Shown here piece by piece: positions 1,662 to 28,900 of a stretch of DNA of 64,000 nucleotides. Positions within the stretch are counted from its first letter, which is position 1. Each line of letters starts with the position of its first letter. Made by a program: the position numbers and the translations under genes. Below the pieces are notes generated by a model. It saw only the letters and a list, made by a program, of their open reading frames with translations, made no database searches and was not told the DNA's origin. Origin of the DNA: Candidatus Omnitrophota bacterium (GTDB lineage Bacteria > Omnitrophota > Omnitrophia > Omnitrophales > Aquincolibacteriaceae); assembly GCA_043732705.1 (NCBI GenBank), contig JAYTHE010000029.1, positions 3,251 through 67,250 on the forward strand. The letters are read 5' to 3'.

Positions 1662-1680
1662 ACTGCTCTCTTTTTTTCAG

Positions 1681-1700: not shown

Positions 1701-1733
1701 CTTGTTTAAGCTTCGGGACGCGCCCGGCTAAAG

Positions 1734-10142: not shown

Positions 10143-10179
10143 AAAAAAAAGACCGTGGAATTTCTTCCACGGTCTTTTT
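10143..10179. terminator. Bidirectional rho-independent terminator (AAAAAAAA-GACCGTGGAA-tttc-TTCCACGGTC-TTTTT), 3' of glnN
   Basis: A perfect 10-bp stem, 4-nt loop and flanking A- and T-tracts, 30 nt downstream of the glnN stop. Confidence 0.75.
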
Positions 10180-10211
10180 CGCCGGTTGCGCTTTAGCGCA
10201 GAGGCAAGATA

Positions 10212-12326
10212 TTACAGCTTAAAGAGCATGTCAGCATAAGTCGGTACCGGCCACGCTCCAGCGCAAACCAATACTTCTACCGCATCAATATCAGGACGGG
10301 TTGCATCCATCGCAACCTTGACCTTATCGCGATAAGCGCGTGCCTTTTCGGGCGCATGCTCAATCTTGGAGCACTTCTCAAGTGTCGCTTCAAGCTTGTC
10401 AAGCTTGTCTTTAGCGGACTCAAGATGGCCCGTAATCGTGATCAAAAGATCTTTTTGAACCGCGGAAGAAGCACCCGTTCCCTTAAGCGAGTTGATCGTA
10501 TCAGCGAGTTTGCCGGTGTAGCAAATGATCGTCGGGATATAAAGAGTCTTCAACATGCGCACTGCGCATTTCGCTTCGATGCCAATTTGCTTGACATAGC
10601 TTTCCATGTAAATTTCATGACGCGAATGAAGTTCACTCTTGGAAAGCACTTTGTACTTTTCAAAAAGCTTAACGCATTCAGGCGTATTCATCGCATCCAA
10701 AGCTTCTACGGTTGAGCTAATATTCGGAAGGCCACGCTTCTTCGCTTCCTTGACCCATTCCTGGGAATATCCGTTTCCGTTAAAAATAACGCGGCCATGA
10801 CTCTTCATAATTTCGCGTACGATTTTTTCAGCTTCTTTATTGAGGTCGCCCTTACCCACTTTTTCAAGACGAGTTGCAACTTCATCAAAAGCTTCAGCAG
10901 TGATCGTGTTAAGAATACAGTTCGGTCCTGCAACTGACGCCGAAGAAGGCACCATGCGGAATTCAAACTTGTTGCCAGTGAAAGCAAACGGTGAAGTGCG
11001 GTTACGGTCGGTATTATGCAAAGGCAGCGGCGGAAGTGAATCCACACCCATGTGCAAATAACCCTGTGCTTTTGCCAACGCTTTTTTACCCTGCGCAATC
11101 GCAGTCAAAATGTCGGTCAAGCCTGTGCCCATAAAAACCGAAATAATCGCCGGAGGAGCTTCATTCGCGCCCAAACGTAAATCATTTCCGGTATTGGAAG
11201 CCGAAGCACGCAATTTATCGGCGTGACGGTCAACCGCGCGAATAATCGCAGCCAAAATAACCAAAAACTGCAAATTGTCATGCGGAGTTTTGCCCGGCTC
11301 AAGAAGGTTTTCGCCTTCGTTTGTCGCGAGCGACCAGTTGTTATGTTTACCGGAACCATTTACGCCCGCAAAGGGTTTTTCATGCAGTAAACAAACCAAA
11401 CCGTTGCGCAAAGCAATTTTTTGCATCGATTCCATAACGAGCTGATTATGATCAACCGCAATGTTCGTAGTTGTAAAAACAACCGCAAGTTCGAACTGCG
11501 CAGGCGCAACTTCGTTATGCTTGGTCTTCGCGCTAACGCCCATTTTCCAAAGTTCGATATCGAGTTCTTTCATAAACTTAGCGATACGGTCTTTGATTGA
11601 ACCAAAATACTGGTCTTCAAGCTCTTGGCCTTTCGGAGAAGCCGCACCAAAAAGCGTACGGCCGGACAAAGCCAAATCCATGCGCTGATCATAAAACTTT
11701 TTGTCGATCAAAAAGTATTCCTGCTCAGGACCTACGGTCGCGGTAACGCGTGTTGCGGTTTTATTGCCAAGCACACGCAAAAGACGAACGGCTTGTTTGG
11801 AAACCGCTTCCATGGAACGAAGCAAAGGGGTTTTCTTATCCAGCGATTCGCCGGTGTAAGACATAAACGCAGTCGGAATGCAAAGCGTCAAATCGCCGGC
11901 TGCGTCTTCTTTTAAGAAAGCCGGTGAAGTGCAATCCCAAGCCGTATAGCCGCGCGCTTCAAAAGTTGCGCGCAATCCACCGCTCGGAAAGGAAGATGCG
12001 TCAGGCTCGCCCTGAATCAACATACTGCCTGTCAACTCAAGCGTAATGCCGCCTTTCATATCGGGATCGATAAAAGAATCATGCTTTTCGGCGGTAATAC
12101 CAGTCAAAGGCTGAAACCAATGTGTAAAGTGCGAAGCTCCTTTTTCAAGCGCCCAATCTTTCATGGCATTCGCAACAACACTGGCAACTTCGGGAGTCAG
12201 CGGAGTTCCTTTTTCAATCGTCTTGCTCAAAGATTTATAAATATCCTTCGGCAGACGCTCGCGCATCACTTTATCATTGAATACATTGCTCCCGAATACT
12301 CCGGGAAGTTTATTCTCACAGCTCAT
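10212..12326 (-). CDS. glnN: Glutamine synthetase type III
   Basis: A 704-aa ORF (GSIII length class) with catalytic glutamine-synthetase motifs. It has a sigma-54 promoter upstream and an adjacent sigma-54 activator. Confidence 0.9.
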
Positions 12327-14202: not shown

Positions 14203-15020
14203 AAAACCTGATTGGGATCCACCCCGTAAAGAGCAATTCCGGCCTTGTTGGCACGTTCAAGAAAAAGCTCTAAATCCAAAAAGAGGGTTTTCCCGGACTC
14301 AAAAGCAAAAACCTTGGCTTTTGACGCGACTAAGGATTCCAATGTGGTCAATCCCACCGCAGGCACGTCAAAACGCATATCCTGCTTGGGTTTAGCGACC
14401 TTCACAACGACAATATCCCCGCCGGCCAACTGTCCGCCCCGTAAAATTGCCTGATCCGTCCCCTCAACCGACTCCACCGCAACCACGGTCTTATTTTTGA
14501 CAACCACCGTCTGCCCGATGTCCTCAGCTGCTACATGCTTAGCAATTTTGAAGCCAAAGTTCACATTTTCAAAATCTTCCTTCGAACATTTCCGCTTTCC
14601 CAAGGGACCCGCGCCCGGTAAAAAGTCATCCATCAGCCAGGTGGAATCCATTAAATCAATGCCCTGATGATGCAAATAGTCGGCAATGCCGCCCAAAAGA
14701 GAATCATCCTTATGGTCTTTCAATTTAATGAGCATTCCAAGCATGTCGAGATCAGGCCGGACATTTTCCTGGAGCAAACGCACCTTTTCCACTTTTCCCG
14801 CCATAACCACTTCATGCACACCTGCCGCGCGGAAAATTTTAACTAATTTTTTGAGTTCGCCGATTTTCACCCATTCAAATTGGTCTGAAACCTGCGCAAG
14901 CAGCGGATCGGCTTCTTTTTCAATTCCACAAACTACAACACGATAACCACGAGCACGCGCTTGCTGCGCAAAAAGAATTGGAAAACGGCCATTGCCGGCG
15001 ATAAGTCCTACTGTTTTCAT
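14199..15020 (-). CDS. lpxI: UDP-2,3-diacylglucosamine pyrophosphatase LpxI (DUF1009 family)
   Basis: N-terminus MKTVGLIAGNGRFP and a length of about 270 aa fit LpxI. It lies directly downstream of lpxA. Confidence 0.7.
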   Translation of the reverse strand: MKTVGLIAGNGRFPILFAQQARARGYRVVVCGIEKEADPLLAQVSDQFEWVKIGELKKLVKIFRAAGVHEVVMAGKVEKVRLLQENVRPDLDMLGMLIKLKDHKDDSLLGGIADYLHHQGIDLMDSTWLMDDFLPGAGPLGKRKCSKEDFENVNFGFKIAKHVAAEDIGQTVVVKNKTVVAVESVEGTDQAILRGGQLAGGDIVVVKVAKPKQDMRFDVPAVGLTTLESLVASKAKVFAFESGKTLFLDLELFLERANKAGIALYGVDPNQVL

Positions 15021-15069
15021 AAATTTTTACGCCTTACCAATTGGATAAAAAGACCGCTCAAAAAGCTTC

Positions 15070-15159
15070 AGATGCGAGGCATTAACAAGCGACCGCGGAG
15101 GCGTATGCGGCAATACGCCGCACAAGGAAGCGATGTTAATAACGAAGCAGATGATCTTT
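15070..15159. repeat. Structured intergenic repeat, family R1, copy C
   Basis: About 75% identical to copy A (5351..5440). It lies between the lpxI start and the lpxA stop. Confidence 0.7.
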
Positions 15160-15169
15160 TTCAGCGGTC

Positions 15170-15976
15170 TCACCGACAAATACCGCGCTCGCATTGCTTG
15201 AGGAAAGTAATCAAGGTCTGTATGGAATCTGAAGTGAAAATTTTTTCAAGCTGTTGGATGGAACTTTTAAGCGCAACTTTCGAGCGAAAAATAATCTTAA
15301 AGGCTTTTTTAATCGCAGACTTTTCATCCGGTGAAAAATTTGCGCGTTCCAAACCAACCGAATTAATTCCGAAAGCACGGGCGGGATGACCATCAACCAT
15401 CATGAAGGGAGGAACATCCTGAACGACTTTTGAGCATCCGCCAATAATTGAAAGCGAACCGATACGAACAAATTGATGCACGCCGGTTAACCCGCCGATA
15501 ATCGCGCGGTCTTCAACGATAACATGCCCAGCTAAAGTGGCGGCATTGGCCAAAACAGTGTTGTTATGAACAATGCAGTCATGCGCAATATGCACATACG
15601 CCATGAGTAAATTATTATTGCCAATCACTGTCTCGGTACCGTCTTTGGTTCCGGGATTGACTGTAACGTATTCGCGAATCTTATTGCCATTTCCGATGCG
15701 CACATAAGAAACGCCGCCGTCAAATTTTTTATCCTGGGTCGGGCTTCCGATCACCGCGCCGGTAAAAATTTCATTGTCGCTGCCAATCGTCGTATGCCCC
15801 TCAATGGTAACGCGCGGCCCAATTTTGGTCCGATCCCCGATTTTTACAGTTCCTTCGATAATCGCGAACGGCCCAACCTCAACGCCTTCACCGAGTTCAG
15901 CATCAGGATGGACAATAGCTGTCGCATGAATAAGTGTTTTTGTTGTTTTCATTTCAATTCTTGTTGTTGCTTTCAT
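15170..15976 (-). CDS. lpxA: Acyl-ACP--UDP-N-acetylglucosamine O-acyltransferase
   Basis: Left-handed beta-helix hexapeptide repeats (IHATAIVHPDAELGEGVEVGPFAII...) and the LpxA C-terminal helical domain. An alternative start at MKTTKTL (15952) is possible. Confidence 0.85.
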   Translation of the reverse strand: MKATTRIEMKTTKTLIHATAIVHPDAELGEGVEVGPFAIIEGTVKIGDRTKIGPRVTIEGHTTIGSDNEIFTGAVIGSPTQDKKFDGGVSYVRIGNGNKIREYVTVNPGTKDGTETVIGNNNLLMAYVHIAHDCIVHNNTVLANAATLAGHVIVEDRAIIGGLTGVHQFVRIGSLSIIGGCSKVVQDVPPFMMVDGHPARAFGINSVGLERANFSPDEKSAIKKAFKIIFRSKVALKSSIQQLEKIFTSDSIQTLITFLKQCERGICR

Positions 15977-15977
15977 G

Positions 15978-15998
15978 CCGGTTGAGCTTGCTCAGAGG
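15978..15998. repeat. REP-like element R3 (CCGGTTGAGC-tt-GCTCAGAGG), immediately 5' of the lpxA start
   Basis: Family consensus. Confidence 0.6.
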
Positions 15999-16014
15999 TA
16001 AAACATGACCGGCG

Positions 16015-17295
16015 TCACGGTTCGACGACTGCGAACTTCACTTCCGCTTCGCATACTAATTTGTCTCCGACATACGCTTTGCCTTCACACTGTCCGGCGC
16101 GGGCGCGCTTTTTAATGACATCCACTTCCATACGCAAAACATCGCCCGGTACAACCGGAGCGCGAAACTTTACTTTGTCCAAGCTCATAAAATAAGCAAT
16201 TTTCCCGCGATTTTCAGGTTCCGCGAGCATAATCACGCCCCCCACCTGCGCCATGGCTTCAACAATCAAAACCCCGGGCATGACGGGATGACCCGGGAAA
16301 TGGCCTTCAAAAAAATAATCATTTACGGTGACCTGTTTAATACCCGTCGCGCGCTTACCCTGCTCAAAATTTTCGATACGGTCCACAAAAAGAAAGGGGT
16401 AGCGATGCGGAATAATTTTTTTGATTTCTTCCACCGTCAGGGTTTTGGGTAAAACAGCCGGCAAACTATTTTCTATCATGCTCAATTTCCTCACGAGTTC
16501 AGTGTTAAGTGCGTGTCCGCTGCGTGTCGCAATCACATGCCCTTTGATAAATTTTCCGAGCAAGAAAAGATCTCCGAGCAAATCCATGATTTTATGCCGA
16601 CAAGCTTCATCCGAAAAGCGCAGTTCATTATCAATCGGCTGGTTGTTTTCAAAGACGAGCGTATTGCTGACATTCGCGCCCTTTCCAAAACCTTGTGAAA
16701 GCAAATATTCCGCTTCTTTTTTAAGACAAAAAGTTCTTGCCGGAGCAAGATCGCGTTCAAATGTTTCCGGCAAAATGGGCAGCATCAAAAACTGGTCTTT
16801 CAAATTCGGGTCAGAATAGGCCAATGTATAAGAAATGATAAATTGCGGGGAAGGCAAAACAATAATGGAATGTTCACCGCGATCCACAAAAACCGGCTGC
16901 TTCACTTCAAGATAAACACGGTTTGCAATTTGCTCAACCAACCCGGCCTGCGAAAGTGAGCGCGTAAACTCAAGCGCGCTGCCGTCCATCCCGGGCAATT
17001 CATCCCCGTTGACTTCGACAACGGCATTATCAATTCCCAGGCCATGAAAAGAGGCCATCAAATGTTCGATTGTTTTGATCACACCCGTTCCGACCGCTAG
17101 TGCCGTTTGACGCAATTCATCGGTGCGGACATTTTGGATCAATGCGCGGACTTTTAATTGCGGGTCAAGATCAACGCGGCAAAATCGAATACCCGTGTTT
17201 TCCTCCGCCGGCAAAACACGGACTTTTACGGATTGGCCCGTGTGCAATCCGGTGCTTTCAAACTCAACCGGTGTCCTAAGCGTTCTTTGCTTCAT
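16015..17295 (-). CDS. lpxC/fabZ: Bifunctional UDP-3-O-acyl-N-acetylglucosamine deacetylase / (3R)-hydroxyacyl-ACP dehydratase (LpxC-FabZ fusion)
   Basis: N-terminal LpxC fold (TLRTPVEFESTGLHTG...) is fused to a C-terminal FabZ hotdog (HFPGHPVMPGVLIVEAMAQ). Such fusions are known in several gram-negative phyla. Confidence 0.9.
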   Translation of the reverse strand: MKQRTLRTPVEFESTGLHTGQSVKVRVLPAEENTGIRFCRVDLDPQLKVRALIQNVRTDELRQTALAVGTGVIKTIEHLMASFHGLGIDNAVVEVNGDELPGMDGSALEFTRSLSQAGLVEQIANRVYLEVKQPVFVDRGEHSIIVLPSPQFIISYTLAYSDPNLKDQFLMLPILPETFERDLAPARTFCLKKEAEYLLSQGFGKGANVSNTLVFENNQPIDNELRFSDEACRHKIMDLLGDLFLLGKFIKGHVIATRSGHALNTELVRKLSMIENSLPAVLPKTLTVEEIKKIIPHRYPFLFVDRIENFEQGKRATGIKQVTVNDYFFEGHFPGHPVMPGVLIVEAMAQVGGVIMLAEPENRGKIAYFMSLDKVKFRAPVVPGDVLRMEVDVIKKRARAGQCEGKAYVGDKLVCEAEVKFAVVEP

Positions 17296-17397
17296 CCCGT
17301 TAGAAGCTCCTCAAATAAAAAGGGTTATCAAAATAAAACTCATCACTCAAAACACCGTTTAGCCCGAAAAACAAACGTCGGTTAAGCTTCTAACGGG
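17296..17397. repeat. MITE-like element, family R2 (102 bp; 13-bp perfect terminal inverted repeats CCCGTTAGAAGCT / AGCTTCTAACGGG)
   Basis: Perfect terminal inverted repeats read directly. The element begins at the nucleotide after the lpxC/fabZ ATG, and its internal region is about 70% identical to 47215..47323. Confidence 0.7.
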
Positions 17398-17415
17398 ATG
17401 AATCCTGTATAAAAA

Positions 17416-17916
17416 CTAGGCTTTTTTATATTTCTTCATCAGCTCTGCAAGAACAGCCTTGGTAATATTCAAAGAAGGATTGCGATAAAGCAAAACACGG
17501 TCATTTAAAATAAAGTCGTACCCTTTCGCTTTACCGAATTCCGCGATTGTCGCGTCAATATCTTGAAAGATTTCACGTACCACTTTTTCACGGCTCTCGC
17601 CGAGCTGGCGGCGAACTTCGCGGTCGAAATCTTCGAGCTGACGTTTCTTTTCGATCAATTGCTCTTGCTTTTGCTGCCGTGCATCTTTTGCTAAAAGGCT
17701 CATTTCATCTTCAAGCTGGCGTGCGGCTTTAACCAATGAGGCGCGTTCTTTTTCTTTTTGCTCACCTACGTTTTTAAGCGACAAGTCCTGATCTTTTGTT
17801 TTTTGATAATTATCAAAAACTTCAGCAACATCCACATATGCGATTCCGGCGGCAAAAACATTACCCGAAAGAAGCATGGTTGCGATTAAAAAAAGTAACC
17901 CCGTGTATTTTTTCAT
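17416..17916 (-). CDS. skp: Periplasmic chaperone Skp/OmpH
   Basis: Signal peptide followed by a coiled-coil-rich 166-aa protein, between bamA and lpxC as in canonical clusters. Confidence 0.8.
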   Translation of the reverse strand: MKKYTGLLFLIATMLLSGNVFAAGIAYVDVAEVFDNYQKTKDQDLSLKNVGEQKEKERASLVKAARQLEDEMSLLAKDARQQKQEQLIEKKRQLEDFDREVRRQLGESREKVVREIFQDIDATIAEFGKAKGYDFILNDRVLLYRNPSLNITKAVLAELMKKYKKA

Positions 17917-17963
17917 TTTAAAGTTCTCCTTGTTAAATGCTCATTTATTTTTGATGCGATTTG

Positions 17964-17987
17964 CCGGTTGAGCCGAAGGCTCAGAGG
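17964..17987. repeat. REP-like element R3 (CCGGTTGAGC-cgaa-GGCTCAGAGG), between bamA and skp
   Basis: Family consensus; 24/25 identical to the in-frame copy in bamA. Confidence 0.7.
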
Positions 17988-17996
17988 CTCAAACGA

Positions 17997-20657
17997 TTAG
18001 AAGCCGCGGCTCAAACTAAACTCAAACCGCCCGTTTTGATTTTTAGTATCTTTATTGAAAATCGGATACCCGTAATAAAGCGCGATCGGGCCGAGCGGTG
18101 TTTTAACTTTAATACCCGGCCCAACACTGGTTGAAAAATCGCTGAAGTTAAATTTAAAAGTTCCACGATTAACATTGCCCGCATCGATAAATACGACACC
18201 ACGCATAATATCCAGAAAAGGCACCGGAAATGTGTAATCAAGGTTAAAAATAGCCATGGATTGTCCGCCCACTGCGTTACCATTTTCAATGGGACCCACG
18301 CGACGATAATTAAAACCGCGAACAGAACCCAAACCACCGGCATAAAAACGGTCGAACACGGGAACCTCTTTCGTACCGCCCAAACTATCCGAAATACCAA
18401 GGCGCGCACCGGCTTCGATCGAGTGCTTTTTCCAAATTTGGATAAACTTGGTATAGTTTGTGTTCAAAATATAATAGTCTGCGTCACCGCCGAGGAAAGT
18501 CCCAATCAATTCGGCATTAATTCCCGCCTGGCTGCCTTTTGTGGGCGCAAAATAATTATCACGTGAATCATAAGTCGTGAAAGTTTTAAGCCTGGAAAGC
18601 AAGGTGTTGCCTTCATAATCACGCACAGTTTGCGGTGCATCCGCCGAAAGATTTTTCAATTTAACTTGTTCCATTGTGTAGCCGCCGCCAACACGGAACA
18701 GATCTTTGATCAGCTTGGAAATCGTAAAGCCCGCGCCTAAACGTGTTTCATCAAAATCAACATTGGTGTTATCGCGAAAATTATCGTAAACATCCAAACC
18801 AAAAGCGTAAGGTTTTCCAAAAAGATACGGTTCCACAAAGCTAAATGCGAAGTTACGGCTGATTGTGCCCACACGCGCGCGCAACGACACCGACTGTCCG
18901 CCGCCGGTGAAACGGGGAAAATTAAAAAGATCAAAGTTCTTTTGCGAAATTTCGGCAAACCCGAGGAAGCGGTCGATTGAGCTCACGCCGCCGCCAAATG
19001 AAAGTTCACCGGTGCGTTTTTCTTTGACACGGAAAACAAGGTCTTTGCGGTTGGGTTCGGTTTCTGAAGGAACGGTGTCGTAAGTGACATCTTCAAAGTA
19101 ATTCAGGTTGTCGAGACGCTCCTTTGATTTTTTGATTTTATCGCCGTCAAAACGGTCGCCGGGACGAATGCGCAGCTCGCGGCGAATAACCTGATCGCGG
19201 GTTTTCGTATTGCCGCGCACGACAACCTTATCTACGAAATAAAGATCGCCTTCGACGATTTCATAAAGCACGTCCACTTTACCGTTTTCTTTATTCAGCT
19301 GAATATCGGGGATGACGCGCGCGTCCATATATCCGCGCTCATTATAAAAAGCACGGAGCTTTTCAACATCCTGCGCGATGTAATACTGTGAATAAGTCAA
19401 ACCGGGCAGCATTTCCAGCTCCTGCCAGAGCTCGGATTCGGGGAAAAGCTGGTTGCCTTTAAACTTGACCTCACCCGTCATATATTTCTGGCCTTCTTCA
19501 ATCAAAACTTTAATGGCCATATCATGTGTTTTCTCGTCATAAGCAAACTCAGGCGCGACTTTAACGTCTAAAAAACCTTCTTTCTGATACTGAAAATAAA
19601 TGCGTTCAAGGTCCTGGTCAAATTCATCTTCTTTAAAGGTTCCGAATAAAAACCACTTACGCGGCTTATTTTTCATAAGCTTTAAAAGCTCTTTACTCTT
19701 AAAGCTTTTATTGCCTTCGAAAACAACTTTCCCGATTTTGTATTTCTTGCCTTCCTCAATTTTAATTTTAATTGTCGCTTGGCCCGCAGCCATATCCTTC
19801 TGAACGTCTTGTTTAACTTCAATAAACCGGAAGCCTTTTTTCTCATAAAGCTTCTTAATTTCTTCAACGCCCTTATTAAGTTTGTTTTCGTCAATGACTT
19901 CGCCTTCCACAAGCCCGAGCGTTTTGCGGATTTTTTCATCTTTAAAAACCGTATGTCCGGAAATTTGAATTTCTTTGATCACCGGTTTTTCAACCACAGT
20001 CACATAAATTTTGAAACCATCCGGAAGCTCATCCAGCTTCACTTGGATATCATCAAAATATCCGGCGGCATAAAGACGCTTGATATCATCATTCACGGTT
20101 TGTTGGCGTAAAATCGCGCCTTTCCGCGTGCGCATTTTCGAAAAAATCGTTTGGGTACTGATAATCTGATTTCCAATAATTTCAACCGCGATTACTTTTT
20201 TCTCCGCTTTGTCCGGAGCCGGCGCAGACATTGTTTTGGGTTTTGCCGCCGGTTGAGCCGCAGGCTCAGAGGAAGAACTTTGATTGACCGCAGGCTGAGA
20301 GGACGCTGCCGGTGTTGCAGCCGCAGCAGGAGGTGCTTGAGTTTGCGGTGCAGGCGGAGCAATCGCCGTGCTTGAGGCTGTCGGTAAACTGTTGGATTCC
20401 GTTACAGGACGATCGGCAGCGGGCGCAGAGTCCTTCTTGTCGCCGGCATCCTGCGCTACAGCCAATTGAATATTGAGACTATAAATTAAGACAATTACAG
20501 AAAGGGAAAAGGCAAGAATACTGCGGGCAGCCTGGCGATTGCGCCGGCGGCTTAAAAATAATACGGTGTTATTCCGGCTGTTTCGCAGGAACTGAGCGAG
20601 AAAAACACCACGTTGATTGAACCAACGACTCAGAGACCCAATAATACGGCGTATCAT
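17997..20657 (-). CDS. bamA: Outer membrane protein assembly factor BamA, with a long Pro/Ala/Ser/Gln-rich low-complexity insert after the signal anchor
   Basis: POTRA repeats and a C-terminal 16-strand barrel ending ...RFEFSLSRGF (aromatic C-terminus). The N-terminal roughly 100-aa linker is low-complexity and contains an in-frame REP-like element. Confidence 0.85.
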   Translation of the reverse strand: MIRRIIGSLSRWFNQRGVFLAQFLRNSRNNTVLFLSRRRNRQAARSILAFSLSVIVLIYSLNIQLAVAQDAGDKKDSAPAADRPVTESNSLPTASSTAIAPPAPQTQAPPAAAATPAASSQPAVNQSSSSEPAAQPAAKPKTMSAPAPDKAEKKVIAVEIIGNQIISTQTIFSKMRTRKGAILRQQTVNDDIKRLYAAGYFDDIQVKLDELPDGFKIYVTVVEKPVIKEIQISGHTVFKDEKIRKTLGLVEGEVIDENKLNKGVEEIKKLYEKKGFRFIEVKQDVQKDMAAGQATIKIKIEEGKKYKIGKVVFEGNKSFKSKELLKLMKNKPRKWFLFGTFKEDEFDQDLERIYFQYQKEGFLDVKVAPEFAYDEKTHDMAIKVLIEEGQKYMTGEVKFKGNQLFPESELWQELEMLPGLTYSQYYIAQDVEKLRAFYNERGYMDARVIPDIQLNKENGKVDVLYEIVEGDLYFVDKVVVRGNTKTRDQVIRRELRIRPGDRFDGDKIKKSKERLDNLNYFEDVTYDTVPSETEPNRKDLVFRVKEKRTGELSFGGGVSSIDRFLGFAEISQKNFDLFNFPRFTGGGQSVSLRARVGTISRNFAFSFVEPYLFGKPYAFGLDVYDNFRDNTNVDFDETRLGAGFTISKLIKDLFRVGGGYTMEQVKLKNLSADAPQTVRDYEGNTLLSRLKTFTTYDSRDNYFAPTKGSQAGINAELIGTFLGGDADYYILNTNYTKFIQIWKKHSIEAGARLGISDSLGGTKEVPVFDRFYAGGLGSVRGFNYRRVGPIENGNAVGGQSMAIFNLDYTFPVPFLDIMRGVVFIDAGNVNRGTFKFNFSDFSTSVGPGIKVKTPLGPIALYYGYPIFNKDTKNQNGRFEFSLSRGF
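20249..20272. repeat. REP-like element R3 (CCGGTTGAGC-cgca-GGCTCAGAGG) embedded in-frame in the bamA low-complexity linker. It is followed by a half-copy CCGCAGGCTGAGAGG.
   Basis: Read directly; it translates on the minus strand as SSEPAAQPA within the Pro/Ala-rich region. Confidence 0.65.
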
Positions 20658-22030
20658 ATCGTAACTTCTTGCTCCCTTGAAAATTCGGGATTATCAAACC
20701 GCGTCCACTCTTTTAAGAAAACCAGCGGAACCGTGCCCGTGGGACCATTACGCTGTTTAGCGATGATCGCTTCGGCGCGATTACGATTTTCTTCTGTCGG
20801 ATTATAATATTCTTCGCGAAAAAGAAATACAACAACGTCCGCGTCCTGCTCGATCGCACCGGACTCGCGCAAATCCGAAAGCTGCGGTTTGTTTCCCTGA
20901 CGAGCTTCTACCGCGCGCGAAAGCTGACTGACGGCAATAACAGGAACTTTTAATTCACGCGCCAACGCTTTAAGCGAACGCGAAATCGCGGAAATTTCCT
21001 GCTGACGGCTTTCAACTTGCCCGCCCATGTGCATCAACTGAAGGTAATCTATCACAACCATTTGAATTCCGTATCGCATTTTCAAGCGTCTGGCTTTCGC
21101 GCGGATTTCAAGCACGGTTTGACCCGGCGAATCATCGATATAAAGCGGTGCTTCGGAAAGTTTGCCCGCGGCCTGCGTCAACTTCGGCCAATCCTGATGC
21201 GACAAATATCCCGTGCGGACTTTTTGAGCATCCACGCGCGCAAAAGAACACAACATACGCTGCACGAGCTGTTCTTTACTCATTTCAAGCGAGAAAAAAG
21301 CCACCGGCTTTTTGAGATTGACCGCGGCATGTTCGCATAAAGCTGTCGTGAAAGCCGATTTACCCATTGAAGGACGGCCGGCGATAATAATTAAATCGGA
21401 AGGCTGCAATCCAGCGGTCTTTGTATCAAATTCATGAAAACCTGTCGCAAGTCCTGTGACATGTTCTTTGCGTTGAAAAAGCTGATCGATGGTTTCCATC
21501 GTATTGTGAATGATGTCACGCATCGCGTAGGCTTTGCCTTCGATTTGATCTTGTCCGATATCAAAAATGGCGCGCTCGGCTTTATCAATTACGTTGCGTG
21601 CATCCTGAGCAGGATCAAAACTTTCCTGAACAATCGTGGTCGCGGATTGAATCAACATACGCAGCAACGCGCGCTCTTTTACGATTTTTGCGTAATGCTG
21701 AATATTGGCAGCAGTCGGCACCGCCGCCGTAAGTTGAGTTAAATAAACCGCGCCACCCGCTCCCTCAAGTTGTCCGCGTTTACGGAGCTCTTCGGAAACC
21801 GTGACTAAATCAGCAGGCTGGTTGCGGTCAAAAAGAGTTTGGAGAACAGAAAAAATTTGAGAGTGGGAAGTTTCGTAGAAGTAGTCGGGCTTGAGAATTT
21901 CAATCGCCAGTGTCAACGCATTCTCATCAAAGAGCATCGAGCCAATAACGCTCATCTCAGCTTCACGGCTGTGCGGCGGAACCTTTTCGAGATTTTGAAC
22001 CGAACCGCCGGCAATGTTACGTTCGGCCAT
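20654..22030 (-). CDS. dnaB: Replicative DNA helicase
   Basis: A 458-aa ORF with Walker A GRPSMGKSAF and the DnaB N-terminal domain. The stop overlaps the bamA start (ATGA). Confidence 0.9.
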   Translation of the reverse strand: MAERNIAGGSVQNLEKVPPHSREAEMSVIGSMLFDENALTLAIEILKPDYFYETSHSQIFSVLQTLFDRNQPADLVTVSEELRKRGQLEGAGGAVYLTQLTAAVPTAANIQHYAKIVKERALLRMLIQSATTIVQESFDPAQDARNVIDKAERAIFDIGQDQIEGKAYAMRDIIHNTMETIDQLFQRKEHVTGLATGFHEFDTKTAGLQPSDLIIIAGRPSMGKSAFTTALCEHAAVNLKKPVAFFSLEMSKEQLVQRMLCSFARVDAQKVRTGYLSHQDWPKLTQAAGKLSEAPLYIDDSPGQTVLEIRAKARRLKMRYGIQMVVIDYLQLMHMGGQVESRQQEISAISRSLKALARELKVPVIAVSQLSRAVEARQGNKPQLSDLRESGAIEQDADVVVFLFREEYYNPTEENRNRAEAIIAKQRNGPTGTVPLVFLKEWTRFDNPEFSREQEVTI

Positions 22031-22152
22031 AAATCACCCAGAGAAATTTAGCGCGCCTCGACGAGACTTGGCGCGCATTCATAAAACTATTATTATTTAT
22101 TTGCTGCGTATCGCGATTGCGCCCCAAAGTCACAATCGCCTGAAATATTTTG

Positions 22153-22195
22153 CTCTGCGCTACGCGCAACCGCCGGTTGGGCCAAAGCCCAGAGG
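22153..22195. repeat. Two adjacent REP-like R3 copies in opposite orientation (CTCTGCGC-tac-GCGCAACCG followed by CCGGTTGGGC-caaa-GCCCAGAGG), between rplI and dnaB
   Basis: Read directly. Confidence 0.65.
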
Positions 22196-22212
22196 CATTA
22201 TATTTACTGTGA

Positions 22213-22671
22213 TTACGCAGGCTGCGGCTCGCCAACAACCTCAACCGTAACCTTAGCCTTGACCTGCGGATAAACTTCGACTTCTACAATATGGGTTCCG
22301 AGCGTCTTGATCGGCTCTTCCATCTGTATTTGTTTCTTGTCCACTTTATGGCCTTTTTTACGGGAAATGTTATCTGCAATTTGTTCCGCGGTTATCGAAC
22401 CGAAAAGTTTGTCGCCCGCGCCGATCTTGGCGGTGATCACAACTTTGATGCGTTCAAGTGATTTCACGGTTTCTTCCGCGGCCGCTCTTTCTTTGGTGCG
22501 GCGGGCTTCAACGCGTACGCGCTGTTCTTCAATAAACACGCGGTTAGCGCGAGTCGCGGGAAGAGCGTAGTGGCGAGGAATTAAATAATTGCGTCCAAAG
22601 CCGTCGCGAACTTTAACGACGTCGCCTTTTCTGCCAACATGCGGTACATTTTGAATCAATAACAATTCCAT
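22213..22671 (-). CDS. rplI: 50S ribosomal protein L9
   Basis: Begins MELLLIQNVPHVGRKGDVVKVRDGFGRNYLIP. The start is chosen at this Met rather than the upstream in-frame Met of the tracked ORF. Confidence 0.85.
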   Translation of the reverse strand: MELLLIQNVPHVGRKGDVVKVRDGFGRNYLIPRHYALPATRANRVFIEEQRVRVEARRTKERAAAEETVKSLERIKVVITAKIGAGDKLFGSITAEQIADNISRKKGHKVDKKQIQMEEPIKTLGTHIVEVEVYPQVKAKVTVEVVGEPQPA

Positions 22672-22727
22672 GGCCGAACTCCTTCTGTAATCCTCTTGCT
22701 CTACGCTAAAGCGCAACCGCATCAGTA

Positions 22728-22748
22728 CGGTTGGGGCGAAGCCCAGAG
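22728..22748. repeat. REP-like element R3 (CGGTTGGGGC-gaa-GCCCAGAG), between rpsR and rplI
   Basis: Family consensus. Confidence 0.65.
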
Positions 22749-22765
22749 TTAAATAAAACTGCGAA

Positions 22766-23056
22766 TCAGTAGACTTGAAACGGCATTAAAGCAGCATGCC
22801 GGGCTTTGCGGATCAACTTCTTCAAAGCGCGTTGATCTTTCGCGTTCAAACGCGTAATACGGCGAGGCAAAATCTTGCCCTTTTCCGTCACAAACTTCAT
22901 AAGCAGTTCCGTGTCCTTATAATCGTAAGTCGGAATCGGACGAACGCCGCGCGGCATTCCCATACCACCGCCCATACGGTCGAAATCCCCGCGGGGCTTT
23001 CTGTCTTTCTTAAACTTGCTGTCTTTGCTGTTGCTTCTTTTGCGCGGCTCTGGCAT
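22766..23056 (-). CDS. rpsR: 30S ribosomal protein S18
   Basis: C-terminal core [42 protein letters not shown]. Start at MPEPRKR. Confidence 0.85.
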
Positions 23057-23135
23057 TTTCAACTATCTCCCTTAATCTTTTTGTTATTGCGGTTGCGGTT
23101 GTTCGCCTGCGGCGAACAGAGCAAAAATATTACTG

Positions 23136-23651
23136 TCAAAACGGAACGTCTTCGTCCGGCTTCAACTCATCCGCTGAAAGTGATCCGGCGCCTCGGGCAC
23201 CTTTACCACTCGAAGCAGCGCTTCCCGCACTCGGAAAAGAATCCGTATCTTCAAAAATCGCTTCATCCGCACCTTCGGTTGAAGGCTCAGCGCCGCGTGC
23301 CGCGCCCGCTTGACCTTGACCGCGGGGCAAGAACTGAACATTCTGCGCCACAACTTCGATCGTTGAACGCTTCGTACCATCCTGGCCTTCCCAACTGCGA
23401 CTTTGCATACGGCCTTCCACAAAAACCGGACTGCCCTTTTTTAAATATTCATTGCAAATTTCCGCAAGACGCGCCCACACCACCACGCGCACATAACTGA
23501 CTTCTTCTTTTTTTTCGCCGGTTTGTGAATTATAAACCCGGTTCATCGCAATCGAAAAGCTTGTGACGGGTTGCCCTGAAGGCAAATAACGCAATTCGGG
23601 ATCGCGTGTTAAATTTCCCATCAAAAAAACTTTATTCAGACTTGCGGCCAT
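23136..23651 (-). CDS. ssb: Single-stranded DNA-binding protein
   Basis: OB-fold N-terminus (NKVFLMGNLTRDPELRY), a Gly-rich tail and an acidic C-terminus DEDVPF. Confidence 0.85.
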   Translation of the reverse strand: MAASLNKVFLMGNLTRDPELRYLPSGQPVTSFSIAMNRVYNSQTGEKKEEVSYVRVVVWARLAEICNEYLKKGSPVFVEGRMQSRSWEGQDGTKRSTIEVVAQNVQFLPRGQGQAGAARGAEPSTEGADEAIFEDTDSFPSAGSAASSGKGARGAGSLSADELKPDEDVPF

Positions 23652-23653
23652 TT

Positions 23654-24019
23654 TTAATCCCTTCCGTAGCCTTCGCGGCCATAGCCTGCGCCGGCAAAAC
23701 CATTATCATCGGATTTGAAAAACTTAGGCACCGGCTTCTTGGAAGGCGGAAAGGTCAGCGTAAAAGAAAGCAGCTTAGTTTCCATCTCAAGCGCTTTTCT
23801 GAAAGCATCAGCCTGATTAGGGTTCATTTGATAAGTCACGGCAAAAACTTTACCATCGGCAAGCTTCTTGAGCTTATAACCCAAGCGGCGCGTACCTACA
23901 TCCACGATTTGGTCCACAACGCCTTCAAAACGCTGGATCCAACCTGTTACTTCAGCGGCCACGTTTTCAGCGGCGGCAACTTCAACAGAAAAAATAAAAA
24001 GACCTTCGTATACTTTCAT
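23654..24019 (-). CDS. rpsF: 30S ribosomal protein S6
   Basis: Begins MKVYEGLFIFS. AAGGAG sits 9 nt upstream of this ATG; an upstream in-frame ATG at 24040 lacks an RBS. Confidence 0.8.
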   Translation of the reverse strand: MKVYEGLFIFSVEVAAAENVAAEVTGWIQRFEGVVDQIVDVGTRRLGYKLKKLADGKVFAVTYQMNPNQADAFRKALEMETKLLSFTLTFPPSKKPVPKFFKSDDNGFAGAGYGREGYGRD

Positions 24020-24296
24020 TCCACTTAACTCCTTACTCAAACTTGATCAAAATAACAAAAAAAATGCCAAATCTTTTAAAAACCACCCGGTTCCGACCGC
24101 TGCCAGAGAAAAAAAAATGGTCAAAACCATTTCGTCTGAAAGAAGCACGCGATTTTCGGTGAAAAAGGTTGGGTAATTTAACACGATCACCAAGGGGACG
24201 CAATAGGGAAAATCAACTTCGCTCAAAGGCAAAAAGCTTGATAAGCCCGCCGACTCTGTTCAGGATTTCATTTTTAGCTTGCGATCTCTAATGCTA

Positions 24297-24908
24297 TTAA
24301 TCGCTATGATTTTTTATATTCATGGCATTCGCCGCAGCAGCAAAAGACTTTTCCACCCATAATTTGCAGGCTTGGGTTGTTTTAGAGAAAACATCCTTCA
24401 GCTGCTTTTCCTGCTCGGGCTTCAGCTTTTCCAGCACGTAGTCTTCCAAAGGTTTCCCGGCCAGAAAATCATTAATCGAATCGCAGGCATTAATATGATC
24501 ACCCACACCGATTTTGATGCGTTGATATTTTGAATGTCCTAAAGCCTGTTCAACCGAAGTCAATCCATTATGCCCGCCCGCGCTTCCGGAGGTCCGCAAA
24601 CGAATCGATCCGAAAGGAATTGCAACGTCATCTGAAACGACAAGCAAATCTTTATCGGTTTGAATTTTATAATAATCACAAATCAAACGGACGGCCTCGC
24701 CTGAAAGATTCATGAAAGTATTCGGATACGCGATTAAAATTTTATCCGTTGGTGTACTCCAACTGCAAATCGAAGCTTTGAGATTGGAATCGGATTGAAA
24801 AGACAAACGCTCGGTTTCTGCCAAAGCAGTTACCGAGCGTTTACCAATATTGTGACGCGTTAAATCGTATTGCGTCCCAGGATTTCCTAAACCGACGATC
24901 AATCTCAT
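24297..24908 (-). CDS. pth: Peptidyl-tRNA hydrolase
   Basis: N-terminus MRLIVGLGNPGTQYDLTRHNIG and catalytic His in the canonical position. Confidence 0.9.
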   Translation of the reverse strand: MRLIVGLGNPGTQYDLTRHNIGKRSVTALAETERLSFQSDSNLKASICSWSTPTDKILIAYPNTFMNLSGEAVRLICDYYKIQTDKDLLVVSDDVAIPFGSIRLRTSGSAGGHNGLTSVEQALGHSKYQRIKIGVGDHINACDSINDFLAGKPLEDYVLEKLKPEQEKQLKDVFSKTTQACKLWVEKSFAAAANAMNIKNHSD

Positions 24909-24922
24909 ATTTTATATTCTAA

Positions 24923-24947
24923 CTCTGCGGTTGGGCGCAGCCCAGAG
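24923..24947. repeat. REP-like element R3 (CTCTGCGGTTGGGC-gca-GCCCAGAG), between L25 and pth
   Basis: Family consensus. Confidence 0.65.
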
Positions 24948-24985
24948 CAAATATAAATTAAAGTAATAAAGAGCTTTGCTCTTTA

Positions 24986-25723
24986 TTACTTCTTGTCTGT
25001 CTTCGGAGCAGCAGGAGCAGCGGCTTTTGCACCACCTGCGGGAGCAGCACCTTTGGCGCCTGCAGCAGGAGGAGTGTCGCCTTCATCCTTCTTCTTCGCT
25101 GTCAGAACTTCCGGTTCTTTAGCGCCGTCTTCAGCGGGCTTCGGCTCTTCTTCTGCCTTCTGTGCGTGAAGCGCAACGAGAACTTCGTCGACAGGAAAAT
25201 CAGTTGTTGCGCCTTCAGGCAGCTTAATGTCTTTCAAGTGAATCGCGTCGCCAATATTCATGCCCCTTACGTCAATTTCAATAAAATCAGGAATTTGTGT
25301 CGGTAAACATTCGATTTCAATTTCGTGATGCACAAGATCCAAACTTCCGCCGGCTTTGACACCGGGAGCAAGATCCGCGCCCTTCATCTTCAAACGAACA
25401 CTAACTTCGATTTTTTCAGTCAATGAAATCACCATAAAATCAATGTGATTGATTTTGTCGGTAACGGGATTGGTTTGATAATCTTTTACGCGGCAGGTGC
25501 TTTCTTTAAGCTTCACGCCTTCAACCTGTAATTGGAACAAAATGTTAAGACCATGTTCCGTGCGAATGGCTTTATTAAAAATCTTATCGTTCACAGAAAT
25601 TGGCAGTGCTTGCATACCGTGACCATAAACAATGGCTGGAATTGCTTCGGCGCGGCGTGTGTCTTCGGCGCCTTTGGTGCCTAATTTCGTGCGTGGTTTG
25701 GCTTGTAGTTCAATCGTTTCCAT
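24986..25723 (-). CDS. rplY: 50S ribosomal protein L25 / general stress protein Ctc, with an Ala/Lys/Pro-rich C-terminal tail
   Basis: Begins METIELQAKPRTKLGTKGAEDTRRAEAIPAIVYG. Confidence 0.8.
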   Translation of the reverse strand: METIELQAKPRTKLGTKGAEDTRRAEAIPAIVYGHGMQALPISVNDKIFNKAIRTEHGLNILFQLQVEGVKLKESTCRVKDYQTNPVTDKINHIDFMVISLTEKIEVSVRLKMKGADLAPGVKAGGSLDLVHHEIEIECLPTQIPDFIEIDVRGMNIGDAIHLKDIKLPEGATTDFPVDEVLVALHAQKAEEEPKPAEDGAKEPEVLTAKKKDEGDTPPAAGAKGAAPAGGAKAAAPAAPKTDKK

Positions 25724-25920
25724 TTTTATTCTCCTTAAGTTACGCTCCTGACCTGCGGCAGGCAGGTGCCCGCACGTGGTTAGAAGCCCGCTCCCCATCG
25801 ATTCGCAGTCATTTTTTTCTCTGCACCAAAAGGTACAACTGCATGGATCTACTCAGAGCGAAAATGAGCCGGAATGATAGCGAATCTCTTTGTCGCCGTC
25901 TACTAGATTTATGCCCGCCA

Positions 25921-25947
25921 CCTTGTACACATCGGATGTGTACAAGG
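25921..25947. repeat. 27-bp perfect palindrome CCTTGTACACATCGGATGTGTACAAGG, family R4, copy 1
   Basis: Read directly, 16 nt 3' of the giant-gene stop. A second copy with one mismatch is at 46279..46305. Confidence 0.8.
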
Positions 25948-25962
25948 TTAGTTTGGGCTGTT

Positions 25963-28900
25963 TTAAGCTGAAATATCGATCAATTCGCCTGCTTTGAGCA
26001 AGGCTTGCACGACAACCATCACCGACCAACCACCGTTCGGACGGCGCTGAAGGCCTTGAATACGCTGGTTGAGATAATTTTGTGCGGCAACAATATCGCC
26101 TAGTGCGGCGGCTTGGCGCAAATCACGTATCATCGCCACCAAAACTTCATAGTCTTCTGCTGAAACCGCATTTAAAAGTTCCAAAACAATTTTGCCGCGA
26201 ATATTTTTTAAGATTGAATTCGAAGTTAAGAGCACAGCTACACCAGGTTTTGCAGCCCATGTCGCAACCTCGGTTTGATTCCCAACAATCACAAGCGCAC
26301 TCATCCAATTCTTCGCTTTGTTCTTCTGTTCAACGGATAACCCTGATTTCAAATTGGTCAATTTATTCCGAATGCGATCGCGCAAGCCGCCCTTCATGTC
26401 TAATAAAATCAAAAGCCCCGCTGTATCTTTCAAAACGGCATAGAGACCCTTGGCATCATTTGCTTCGAGCAATAAATCCACATACGCGGAATCCAGAATA
26501 AGCTGCGTATTATTTTGGACAAATTTTGATTGAGGCGCCGCCAATGTTTTGCTTGGTGCTTGCTGCGCAAGCACTCCAACTATCGGCTGAGGAATTTCAT
26601 CGGCAAAAGCTTTCGCACCTGTCCATGTCATAATCAAAGCAATTGCATCGCTTGTAGCAAGCTCCATCAAAAACTGCCGCGGCACAATACCGCGCATAAT
26701 CCAAACCAATGTTGGTAAAATCGCCACACGCGTCTGCAGAGGCTGTCTTGTAATTTGAGCTTCACCAAAAACCGGCCTTTGCTCTGACCGCCGAATAACC
26801 CGCGGCGCATAAATCAAACGCGCCTGATTCCCCAGTGATGGGCTCGGTGTCAGGTCTTTTGGAAGACTTCGCACTTCGGAGCGAGCTAAATAATAGTAAG
26901 CCACGGTTTCTAACCCTTTATTGCCAATTTGTTTTGCGAAAATTTTCCCTGAACGGCTCAACTCAGCAAAAAGAACTCTTGCTTCCGCAACTTTGCTATC
27001 GTTTTCAATGCCATATCTCCCCCCATCGATAGCTTTGGAAAGCAGCTGCACAGCCTGCTTCGCTTTAACAATGTTGGCGGGAGTTTGGTCTTTTAAGAAA
27101 ATGAGCGTCACAGCTGCTATAAAAACCAACACGCTTCCAAGCAACCCGGTAAGCGAGCTTGCTGAAGCCGAAATATTTGTCATGGCCGTCGCGAGGCTTA
27201 TCAACCATGCCCCCAAAGTCATGGTCACGCCCGCCGCCAAAACCGTAACAATCCATAATTTCAATGATTTTTGTTTTACCGCATCAGATTGCTGCCACGC
27301 CACAGCCTTACCTCCTAGCTGTCTTGAAAGATTGACAAACTGCTGCCAATTATTATCAACCCGCGCTTCGGAGCGAGCCAATCTCATCCAAATATAAGCT
27401 CCAGTCATTATTTCCGGTAAAGAGGCATCCGTAAACTCGTTTTGAAATTTTTGTTTGAGCAATTCCAAAAGTTTTCGTGTGTTTTCTAAATTAGCCTCAG
27501 TTTCGCCGTCATGATAATAAATTTTAAGTTCGATATTTTTTTCTTCTCCTGCCATTTCAACTTCAAGTTTTTTGAAATTTGGATTTCCACGAAAATAATT
27601 CTCAGCCGCTTGCCTTATAGCCTCTCGAAAAAGAAGGTCTTCCACACCACTATAAATGGCGGTATCGCTGTCAGGATTTGAGGCGGTTGACTCAGCGTCA
27701 TTTTTTCCAATTACAAACCACGCTTTTGCTTTGGACTCCACGGTGGACGATGAGCTTGAACCTTCAGGAAAAAATAGTTCCTGAAGCTCCGGAGAAGGCG
27801 CCTTGGGATCTAACAAAATTGTGGGTACCGCAATTTGTCCGAAAGCATGCGCCCCTTGGAGTGACTTTCGGAAATCTGCTAGCGAACCAGGAACTGTTTC
27901 ATCGGCATCGACATCGACCACTTTTTTACGGGCGAGAAGAACCGCTTTCCAATAGTCCGCGCTTTCTGAAAACTCCTCCGGCTGATAAAAAAGAACCCCC
28001 ACAATCTCGACTGCATCCGGAAAAACTGCGCCATCCACATTGGCAAGTATCTGTCTAATCGCCGCAGTTTTTTTCCTTTCAAACGGATTAGTAACAGGCG
28101 CATATCGAGTCAGTTGATTTTTGCCAACATTACCATTGCCCGGCTGGCGACCGGTAGACGACCCACGCACAGTTTGATTCTCGCCTCGCACAAGCCAAGC
28201 AGACGGAATCAGCCGAACAATCAACGTGGCTGCCAAAACACTGAGCAATAAATATAAAAATGGATTTGCATGTATCAAATTCCATAAGACTCCAAAATGA
28301 ATGCAAAAAAATGCGACAGGAATAATGGCTGCCGTGATCAATCCCCTTTTATAAATGACTCGGATTGCGTGGTTCTGCTGCGAAGGAGAAGCTAATTTAA
28401 ATAAATCCGGAAAAATAATTATCAGAAAGTCCCTCAGAAGAAAATAGAATGCCGCGGCAGTCCCAAATGCTATGCCCATATTAGAAAAGTATGAGTGCTG
28501 CGAGCCAACCATGCCGTTTCTTGATAAAATCGCACCCACAGCACTGCTCAAATCCATTGCCAGAATTAAAGTCACCACCCTCATGGTCCATGGCGCATGA
28601 CCTTGTCTGTGTTCGGAACGCTTAGGCGGAATGACGTGTCCGGACGAAGGCTGACCGTTACCAAAATGGGTTGGGAGAGGAGCGTTTTTTACCTGCGGAA
28701 TTGAAAACGGACTACGCATTTTGTTGCCATATCCATATGTCGTAAAAGTCATCGGCCTAGGTCCTGCGTGCTCCATACTACGACGCACCGCTTCTGTGAA
28801 TTGCGCGCAACTACCCAAGATTCCAGCGATTGAAACTGACAGCAACATCCTCACGAGTGAAGAAATTCCCAGCCGTTTATTGAACCGCATTTCGGAGCGC

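Follow-up and report, generated by a model that had tools for sequence, protein, structure and literature searches.

Dispersed hairpin elements at gene ends of an Omnitrophota sub-clade and their in-frame copies in the bamA linker

How does a short palindrome that otherwise lies between genes come to be translated within bamA? This question was raised by a stretch of 64,000 nt from Candidatus Omnitrophota bacterium (assembly GCA_043732705.1, contig JAYTHE010000029.1, positions 3,251-67,250 of the forward strand), referred to here as the window. Window coordinates are used throughout, position 1 being the first letter of the window. A first-pass annotation of this DNA had listed ten positions resembling repetitive extragenic palindromic (REP) elements, one of them in bamA, and had proposed that insertion of the repeat generated a disordered linker in this gene. 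The palindromes indeed form a family of structured elements, restricted in its distribution and placed at gene ends, and members of it are read in frame in bamA. Our preferred explanation, with a probability of about 0.58, is that they are lineage-specific, REP-like dispersed imperfect palindromes of ~30 nt which spread at the DNA level, the copy in bamA being a passenger.

Anatomy and placement of the hairpin family

A structure-aware scan for the hairpin was run on about 270 kb, comprising the window and related loci, with the same DNA reversed as control. It returned 73 perfect copies, compared with none in the control. A covariance model built from 32 copies of relatives gave 13 matches in the window (filters off, cut-off E<0.05) and 88 matches in 290 kb of clade DNA. 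The window matches include a family member at each of the ten positions listed in the first-pass annotation and add three copies that it had missed, at 10184, 23097 and 52738. The pattern by which the family had been described, CGGTTGRGC-n3-4-GCYCAGAG, matched only two sites as written; what stays constant on the element strand is CTCTG and CAACCG, and stems and loops differ in length. Against Rfam, only a tRNA reached its gathering score, and nothing relevant appeared at E<=5 in the region 15000-26000. Twelve of the 13 window matches were intergenic, though 89.9% of the window is coding (binomial P=1.3e-11), in line with the annotation's description of extragenic palindromes in short intercistronic gaps. 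Coding copies amounted to three of ~90 in ~330 kb, all in one disordered linker of bamA, in the window and in its close relative L001.

Read on its own strand, the element is ~30 nt long (27-35 nt) and consists of a T-tract, a 3-bp outer helix, an internal loop, an inner helix and a short terminal loop. The internal loop is invariant, with TC on the 5' side opposite ACC on the 3' side, and lies between two helices that covary. The inner helix of 5-8 bp opens with T:A followed by G:C; its sequence varies between the constant flanks CTCTG and CAACCG. At its foot, the element strand has CTCT and the opposite strand (C)GGTT. Among the 73 perfect copies, T was found in 79-84% at positions -6 to -3 and G in 98% at +1, and the terminal loop had three nucleotides in 68%, usually with T first (TTC, TTT, TGC, TAC). 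Downstream of the hairpin there is no T-tract, the 3' flank being CAACCGC.

In the alignment of the 88 matches, 99.8% of the inner-helix cells were paired, and one inner-helix pair occurred as GC in 40, CG in 29, AU in 13 and UA in 4 copies with zero mismatches. The outer helix was first suggested by folding, and its pairs lie outside the covariance model. Positions -1 and +2 formed a Watson-Crick pair in 61 of the 73 perfect copies, compared with 31.6±3.6 in shuffles, and positions -2 and +3 were paired in 40 of 73 (20.4±3.6 in shuffles); the -1:+2 pair was GC in 51, CG in 19 and AU in 6 copies of the 88-match alignment. At least 18 different stems occur across the family. Only one of 74 copies with perfect flanks had a stem mismatch, which indicates that stems are probably swapped whole. 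Counting G:U versus A:C pairs for the functional strand was not decisive. As the helices are free to covary and the bases next to the loop are fixed, the copies share a single-stranded fold and a small recognition surface.

About three quarters of the copies were oriented like the gene upstream of them and started at a median of 12-18 nt past its stop codon, most of these sense copies lying 5-20 nt past the gene end. Copies also followed tRNA-Trp and the tiny rpmG gene, so the placement rule concerns gene ends rather than stop codons. The remaining quarter was inverted, mostly 8-22 nt upstream of a start codon, and the T-tract side therefore always faces the nearest gene. In the 20 of 81 copies that were antisense to the local genes, the T-tract, the G at +1 and the T-first loop were kept as well as in the sense copies, and the constraints thus follow the element and not the mRNA. 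The element strand was the G-rich strand in 60 of 80 copies. Most copies were singlets; tail-to-tail pairs (22145/22169 and 22691/22723 in the window, 7890/7932 in L001) and tandem arrays with a period of 34-37 nt occurred as well.

In-frame copies and the age of the bamA linker

The features of the bamA locus on which the argument depends are the following.

17997-20657, minus strand: bamA, 886 residues, with five POTRA repeats and an Omp85 barrel (Pfam)
20202-20453, minus strand: Pro/Ala/Ser/Thr/Gln-rich bamA linker, residues ~69-152, from the signal peptide (AVA/QD) to POTRA1 (translation and Pfam)
20245-20279, minus strand: in-frame linker copy with core 20251-20271 (CTCTGAGCCTGCGGCTCAACC); covariance model, 18.3 bits
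20277-20296, minus strand: decayed second linker copy (CTCTCAGCCTGCGGTCAATC), 42 nt upstream in reading direction; from sequence
17960-17994, minus strand: intergenic twin copy between bamA and skp (CTCTGAGCCTTCGGCTCAACC), 10 nt after the bamA stop; covariance model

The first-pass annotation was right in placing the repeat at 20249-20272 inside bamA, between signal peptide and POTRA1, and in reading it in frame as SSEPAAQPA. On the coding strand, codons 129-137 are TCC TCT GAG CCT GCG GCT CAA CCG GCG and give S-S-E-P-A-A-Q-P-A. Folding predicts that this copy forms a hairpin whose outer helix is C:G (-1 C with +2 G). Its identity to the intergenic copy at 17964 had been put at 24 of 25 and is in fact 23 of 24 (23 of 25). 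The "half-copy" noted beside it is repeat sequence, as claimed, but turned out to be a decayed full second copy, which is intact in L001 at 10264-10284. There, 42 nt upstream of the first copy, it has the stem GCGTC/GACGC and reads S-A-S-S-T-Q-P. The decayed window version resembles the neighbouring copy and, at -1.5 kcal/mol, no longer folds. The orthologue of the window copy is found in L001 at 10306-10326 and has lost its innermost stem pair and its outer pair.

Could the match in bamA be a coincidence, produced by low-complexity Ser/Pro/Ala/Gln coding or by a conserved SxPAAQP peptide? The peptide S-E-P-A-A-Q-P by itself fixes 13 of the 21 core bases, and similar peptides occur without the DNA motif, as SPAAQP and SPDAQP in distant relatives, SSEPAALPAA in L115 and SGESTQP in L176. 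We recoded the fixed peptides with random synonymous codons drawn from the window's own codon usage. A perfect motif arose with P ~1.5e-3 for the window copy and with 2.4e-3 and 1.0e-3 for the two perfect copies of L001, probabilities to be multiplied for that genome. In a composition-matched shuffled linker the value was 1.3e-4. The peptide alone thus does not explain the match. Moreover, the covarying outer pair is present in the window copy, and perfect in-linker copies were found only in genomes that hold the family. We regard coincidence as barely credible and are confident that the bamA copy is a true, in-frame member. For L115, third codon positions have diverged too far to tell whether the motif was present earlier. 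A third in-frame copy had been predicted at SGESTQP of the BamA homologue P0006 (L176), and there was no motif at the DNA level.

The second part of the earlier proposal, that insertion of the repeat generated the linker, did not hold. The linker had been described as an extension of roughly 100 residues lacking in typical BamA proteins. It measures ~84 residues and is typical of the phylum: all of 120 Omnitrophota homologues compared have a Pro/Ala/Ser/Thr-rich linker, with a length of 30-138 residues (median ~72) in the subset that was measured. With its signal peptide, linker, five POTRA repeats and Omp85 barrel, the window protein fits the Omnitrophota BamA pattern. Its nearest relatives are from Candidatus Omnitrophota metagenome bins, one at 89% identity, one group at 77-88% and a large group at ~55-62%. 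The linker is also present in the distant Omnitrophota L119, L121 and L123, which have the same gene order and BamA proteins ~60% identical and are free of the hairpin family. In two such family-free relatives it includes the peptides SPAAQP and SPDAQP in unrelated codons, a finding of the kind that the annotation itself had named as contrary to its insertion hypothesis, and one that goes part of the way against it. Because all 120 homologues have a linker, it predates the element.

Nevertheless, the elements seem to have left their mark on its length. The linkers of the window protein and of homologue P0001 are 15-40 residues longer than those of the rest of the sub-clade. In a protein alignment, a 17-residue block holding both copies appeared as an insertion in these two proteins relative to the nearest outgroups P0002 and P0005, a comparison to be read with caution given the low complexity of the region. 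Hairpin elements would thus have lengthened the linker by ~17-28 residues rather than created it. One element, or two in tandem 42 nt apart, may have entered the existing disordered linker in the common ancestor of the window genome and its closest relative. Of the three reading frames of the copy, only the one in use gives a linker-like peptide, and an adjacent frame has a TGA stop (CTC TGA). The copy would have survived since its in-frame Ser-Glu-Pro-Ala-Ala-Gln-Pro fits the composition of the linker, and the copies now appear to be decaying differently in the two lineages. The intergenic copy just after bamA has, in the window, the stem and loop that we infer for the linker copy of the ancestor; in relatives the stem at this site is GGGC or GCGC. 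The shared stem suggests copying between the linker site and the site after bamA.

Another stretch of the same linker, outside the copies, is well conserved. A run of 30 residues (SAPAADRPVTESNSLPTASST.IAPPAPQTQ) is almost identical between the window (20320-20420, minus strand) and L001 (10140-10240), with good conservation of the DNA too. P0002 and P0005 are without the 14-residue insertion that opens the SAPAADRPVTESNSLPTASST.IAPPAPQTQ stretch and are poorly conserved over its remainder; the rest of the linker evolves fast.

Other copies, turnover and distribution

The other copies of the window are listed below. The genes around bamA follow one another on the minus strand in the order L25, pth, S6, ssb, S18, L9, dnaB, bamA, skp, lpxC-fabZ, lpxA and lpxI, the bamA start overlapping the dnaB stop (ATGA, 20654-20657).

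1673-1705, plus strand: inverted copy in front of the gene at 549-1661, 19 nt from its start codon; covariance model
10178-10211, minus strand: sense copy, 8 nt past the stop of a type III glutamine synthetase gene and followed by a canonical terminator; newly found
15974-16005, minus strand: copy between lpxC-fabZ and lpxA, ending 1 nt before the lpxA start codon; identical copy in L001
22145-22177, plus strand: inverted (antisense) copy, half of a tail-to-tail pair between rplI (L9) and dnaB; covariance model
22169-22202, minus strand: sense copy, 18 nt after the L9 stop, other half of this pair
22691-22724, plus strand: degenerate inverted copy between S18 and L9; covariance model, E=0.16
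22723-22756, minus strand: sense copy after rpsR (S18) with one bulged C; the orthologous copies of three relatives have different stems
23085-23129, minus strand: sense copy after ssb with the long stem GTTCGCC/GGCGAAC; newly found
24923-24955, minus strand: sense copy between the L25 gene and pth; covariance model
50104-50136, minus strand: sense copy, 40 nt upstream of a GHMP-kinase gene (49254-50069)
52732-52764, minus strand: decayed tandem copy in the gatB-tsaD spacer; newly found
52768-52800, minus strand: copy with a single change in the flank (CTTTG), in the spacer between gatB and tsaD

The copy at 52768 lies in an apparent open reading frame. The TsaD domain begins only at residue 73 of this frame, and the site is therefore intergenic.

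The turnover of the family became apparent when the syntenic loci of close relatives (L001, L002, L004, L114-L116, L176) were compared with the window, whose DNA is 80-87% identical to that of close-relative genomes. The spacers after S18, L9, ssb, bamA, L25 and lpxC kept a copy in most of these relatives, with unrelated stems; after S18, for instance, the stems were GGC, CGC, AGGC and AGC. The site after ssb in L114 has the same stem, GTTCGCC/GGCGAAC, as the window. The flanks of some orthologous copies are decaying. Further element loci were brought in by a pattern scan of species-representative genomes, in which the bins JAYSWD GFS_12873 and CAZLTL gave 9-11 loci each. Between rplA and rplJ, L067 has a single inverted copy and L094 has two sense copies. 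By contrast, the syntenic DNA of L119, L121 and L123 (73 kb) held zero copies, and its spacers were compact. The family is therefore a recent gain of one Omnitrophota sub-clade.

The same architecture, including the covarying -1:+2 pair, was found sporadically outside it, in an alphaproteobacterial bin (L017, L027, L076, L023), a Caldilineaceae bin (L097), a high-GC bin (L046) and three viral contigs (L133, L148, L139). Pattern matches in viral contigs were as numerous as those of the reversed control pattern (25 each), only these three contigs being truly multi-copy. Among the matches listed in the contig scan, most were chance matches in GC-rich genomes, and those near flavobacterial group II introns appear unrelated to the hairpin element.

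Some features of these distant copies may be recorded here. The three contigs, viral as labelled in IMG/VR, have 39-64% GC and 2-3 copies each with different stems; several copies lie on the template strand, with the start-codon complement CAT 12-22 nt upstream of CTCTG. In Alphaproteobacteria D3_Bin_25 and relatives (L017, L023, L027, L076), one sub-family has the direct repeat GCGACTG on either side of its core, the flanks of another are GCGATGC...GGCCCTGC, and at least two copies (L017 3420, L027) stand upstream of ribosome-binding sites. In the Hyphomicrobiales bins L013 (1909-1941), L020 (4783-4948) and L025 (7485-7517) a distance of ~20 nt separates the motif from incomplete tRNA-Gly or tRNA-Pro sequences (3' fragments), and in L020 it lies in two 133-nt tandem units adjoining a full tRNA-Gly. 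These sites may be att-site debris of an integrative element carrying the hairpin.

Several observations concern other parts of the locus. The bamA-skp spacer of L002 (5506-5952) and L004 (6393-6598) contains a different repeat, made of ~150-nt units that start with GCCGCAAGTTACGGAACGTAACTTGCATGGCC; L002 has ~2.5 tandem units of this GCCGCAAGTTACGGAACGTAACTTGCATGGCC repeat, upstream of a degenerate hairpin copy. The genes lpxC and fabZ are fused into one gene of 426 residues (16015-17295, minus strand), and both this fusion and the dnaB/bamA overlap were kept across the Omnitrophota loci examined. A near-perfect, AT-rich palindrome of 15 bp (GAAGTAATAAAGAGCAAAGCTCTTTATTACTTT, 24960-24992) overlaps the L25 stop just upstream of the copy at 24923-24955. 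In the pth-S6 spacer (24041-24296, minus strand), the window, L001 and L004 have in common a conserved block of ~120 nt (…GATTTTCCCTATTGCGT…AAATTACCCAACCTTTTTCACCGAAAATCGCGTGCTTC…). This block, a possible promoter or leader for the S6 operon, had no Rfam match. Finally, a giant open reading frame of 5525 residues (25963-42540, minus strand) lies between prs/glmU-like genes and the L25 gene and has no hairpin copy inside. Pfam gave only weak Glyco_transf_5 and NDK matches for it. The L001 counterpart is truncated (>3839 residues), and in L119 and L121 prs leads directly to L25 without it.

Origin of the family and known systems

How did the copies spread? In our preferred explanation, the family would have been copied and replaced at the DNA level, most likely by way of a single-stranded hairpin handled by a dedicated HUH/RAYT-type or analogous enzyme, by analogy with the REP/RAYT systems (PMC3479197, PMC3116915). 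New copies would land beside T-tracts flanking genes, which would explain both the sense copies after gene ends and the inverted copies before ribosome-binding sites. REPs act as an exonuclease barrier in mRNA (PMC12320835). Hairpins of our family that are transcribed at cistron boundaries would probably have the same effect, as a by-product, and the transcript-stabilising role named in the first-pass annotation may apply to them. The genes between inverted copy pairs are housekeeping genes. Liang, Rudd and Deutscher reportedly found in 2015 that E. coli ribosomes stall where a REP lies within ~15 nt of the stop codon.

Several points weigh against such a spread. The window contains no transposase of any kind, and a tblastn search with E. 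coli RayT found no match in 307 kb of clade DNA, a weak search covering a fraction of each genome. The GTAG head of classical REPs is absent, the stems are far more diverse than in REPIN populations with a master sequence, and singlets outnumber doublets. The tight placement, at a median of ~12-18 nt past the end of a gene or tRNA, could also reflect a selected host function, as could the persistence of copies at orthologous sites. No pair of an empty and a filled site with clean boundaries was found, and the bamA copies may have come from insertion or from conversion of a similar pre-existing stretch.

The main rival takes up these points and sees in the element a host-selected RNA signal that punctuates operons. 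An RNA-binding protein or an endoribonuclease would read the UC/ACC loop and define or protect the ends of cistrons and tRNAs, with selection acting on each site. Sense copies indeed stand 5-20 nt past most stop codons in the highly expressed operons S6-SSB-S18-L9, tuf-rpmG-tRNA-Trp-secE and S16-trmD-L19, and after tRNA-Trp, and in four or five genomes the orthologous spacers still have a copy whose stem differs in a compensatory way. Helices covarying around invariant loop bases would likewise be at home in protein-binding RNA hairpins. However, a quarter of the copies are antisense and yield GGU/GA instead of UC/ACC in the transcript, yet they are equally conserved. The same spacer differs in orientation and copy number between two genomes (L067, L094), syntenic relatives manage without the element, and if RNA were cleaved under its direction, its presence within bamA would do harm. 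We consider this explanation unlikely, though it deserves the most attention after our own. Less probable, a long shot in our view, is a related idea in which the element is not selfish and serves as the recognition site of an enzyme system which spreads horizontally and, by means of the UC/ACC loop, marks the boundaries of genes ("genome punctuation") in some phages and several phyla. In that case the copies in bamA would have a function, such as pausing translation by a programmed RNA structure after emergence of the signal peptide.

Could the hairpin instead be read as single-stranded DNA by a polymerase or primase? It would then be a lagging-strand priming site like the origin of phage G4 or a promoter like that of the phage N4 virion RNA polymerase, systems which we take to resemble it in geometry (a 5-8 bp stem, a loop mostly of 3 nt, CTG at the foot). 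The G-rich strand, on which 75% of the copies lie, is the lagging-strand template, and viral and inverted copies have the hairpin on the strand used as template, with a start codon 13-35 nt downstream. The strand bias is, however, inseparable from gene orientation, and orientations are mixed within 4.7 kb in L067. As promoters, the majority of sense copies would transcribe antisense into the upstream gene. The window encodes no single-subunit RNA polymerase; the giant open reading frame was considered as a candidate polymerase and rejected on its Pfam matches. We judge this reading very improbable. Least probable of all, close to negligible, is that the copies are intrinsic (Rho-independent) terminators. 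They are GC-rich hairpins beside T-tracts just past genes, but the hairpin has its T-tract on the 5' side and CAACCGC on the 3' side, and copies lie between nearly all genes of single operons. Canonical hairpin-T8 terminators adjoin copies both in the window, past the glutamine synthetase gene, and in L067, past tuf, and terminator-like sites were not enriched in the region (28 found, 23.7 expected). The terminator role suggested in the first-pass annotation is thus not borne out. Further resemblances may exist, namely to a split boxA, to an RNase P minihelix (a stem followed by ACC), to the 3' strand of 16S helix 45 (a 7-nt complementarity of CAACCGC) and to the end of a type I-E CRISPR repeat.

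As lineage-specific dispersed palindromes, the copies add a well-defined structured repeat to a phylum known only from metagenomes; our search of the literature for repeats in Omnitrophota yielded no relevant family. The combination of a fixed internal loop with free helices is unusually clean and provides a handle for finding the protein that reads it. The bamA copies illustrate, on a small scale, the absorption of a non-coding repeat into an essential gene, a step that needs a disordered segment and a frame matching its composition. In practical terms, the covariance model could help to mark gene ends in these genomes.

Among known systems, intrinsic terminators and terminator-like miniature inverted-repeat transposable elements such as SPRITE (PMC10969869) share a GC-rich hairpin with a T-tract just downstream of genes. 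They differ in having the T-tract on the other side, whereas the Omnitrophota element has sequence-specific flanks and coexists with true terminators. The Rickettsia palindromic elements provide a parallel for bamA: a palindromic repeat lies in frame in genes, including housekeeping genes, and adds a peptide without destroying the protein (PMC10969869). These elements are ~100-150 bp long and code for a conserved peptide; in R. conorii, nearly half of them fall within open reading frames (PMC10969869). The Omnitrophota unit is only ~30 nt, and its coding copies are confined to the bamA linker of the window and L001.

Integron attC sites are likewise read as a folded single strand in which structure and a few unpaired bases are conserved while the helices vary. 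They are 57-141 nt long, with R and L boxes and extrahelical bases, and form cassette arrays beside an integrase. The Omnitrophota element is much shorter (27-35 nt), lies between housekeeping genes and shows a likeness to GTTRRRY only in copies with a GGGC stem.

Like the Omnitrophota family, the REP, BIME and REPIN elements of E. coli and Pseudomonas (PMC3479197, PMC3116915) are short imperfect palindromes of ~30 nt, extragenic and present in high copy number. In each case an unpaired or mismatched feature is conserved, in REPs a mismatch or bulge needed for RAYT binding (PMC3479197), and so are bases at the hairpin foot. The copies can have either orientation, form inverted pairs and tandem clusters and are placed between cistrons, and each family is lineage-specific. 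The differences lie in the details. REP systems have a single-copy RAYT gene (TnpA-REP, Y1/HUH) flanked by the repeats, for which the Omnitrophota DNA examined gave no match. The REP head is GTAG, whereas the fixed bases here are C-TC-TG ... CA-ACC-G. REP stems cluster around a master sequence and those of the Omnitrophota element vary freely and covary; REPINs are mainly inverted doublets, and the Omnitrophota copies are mostly singlets tied tightly to gene ends. On the best reading, the Omnitrophota element is a variant of the REP-like dispersed palindrome not previously described in our Rfam and literature searches.

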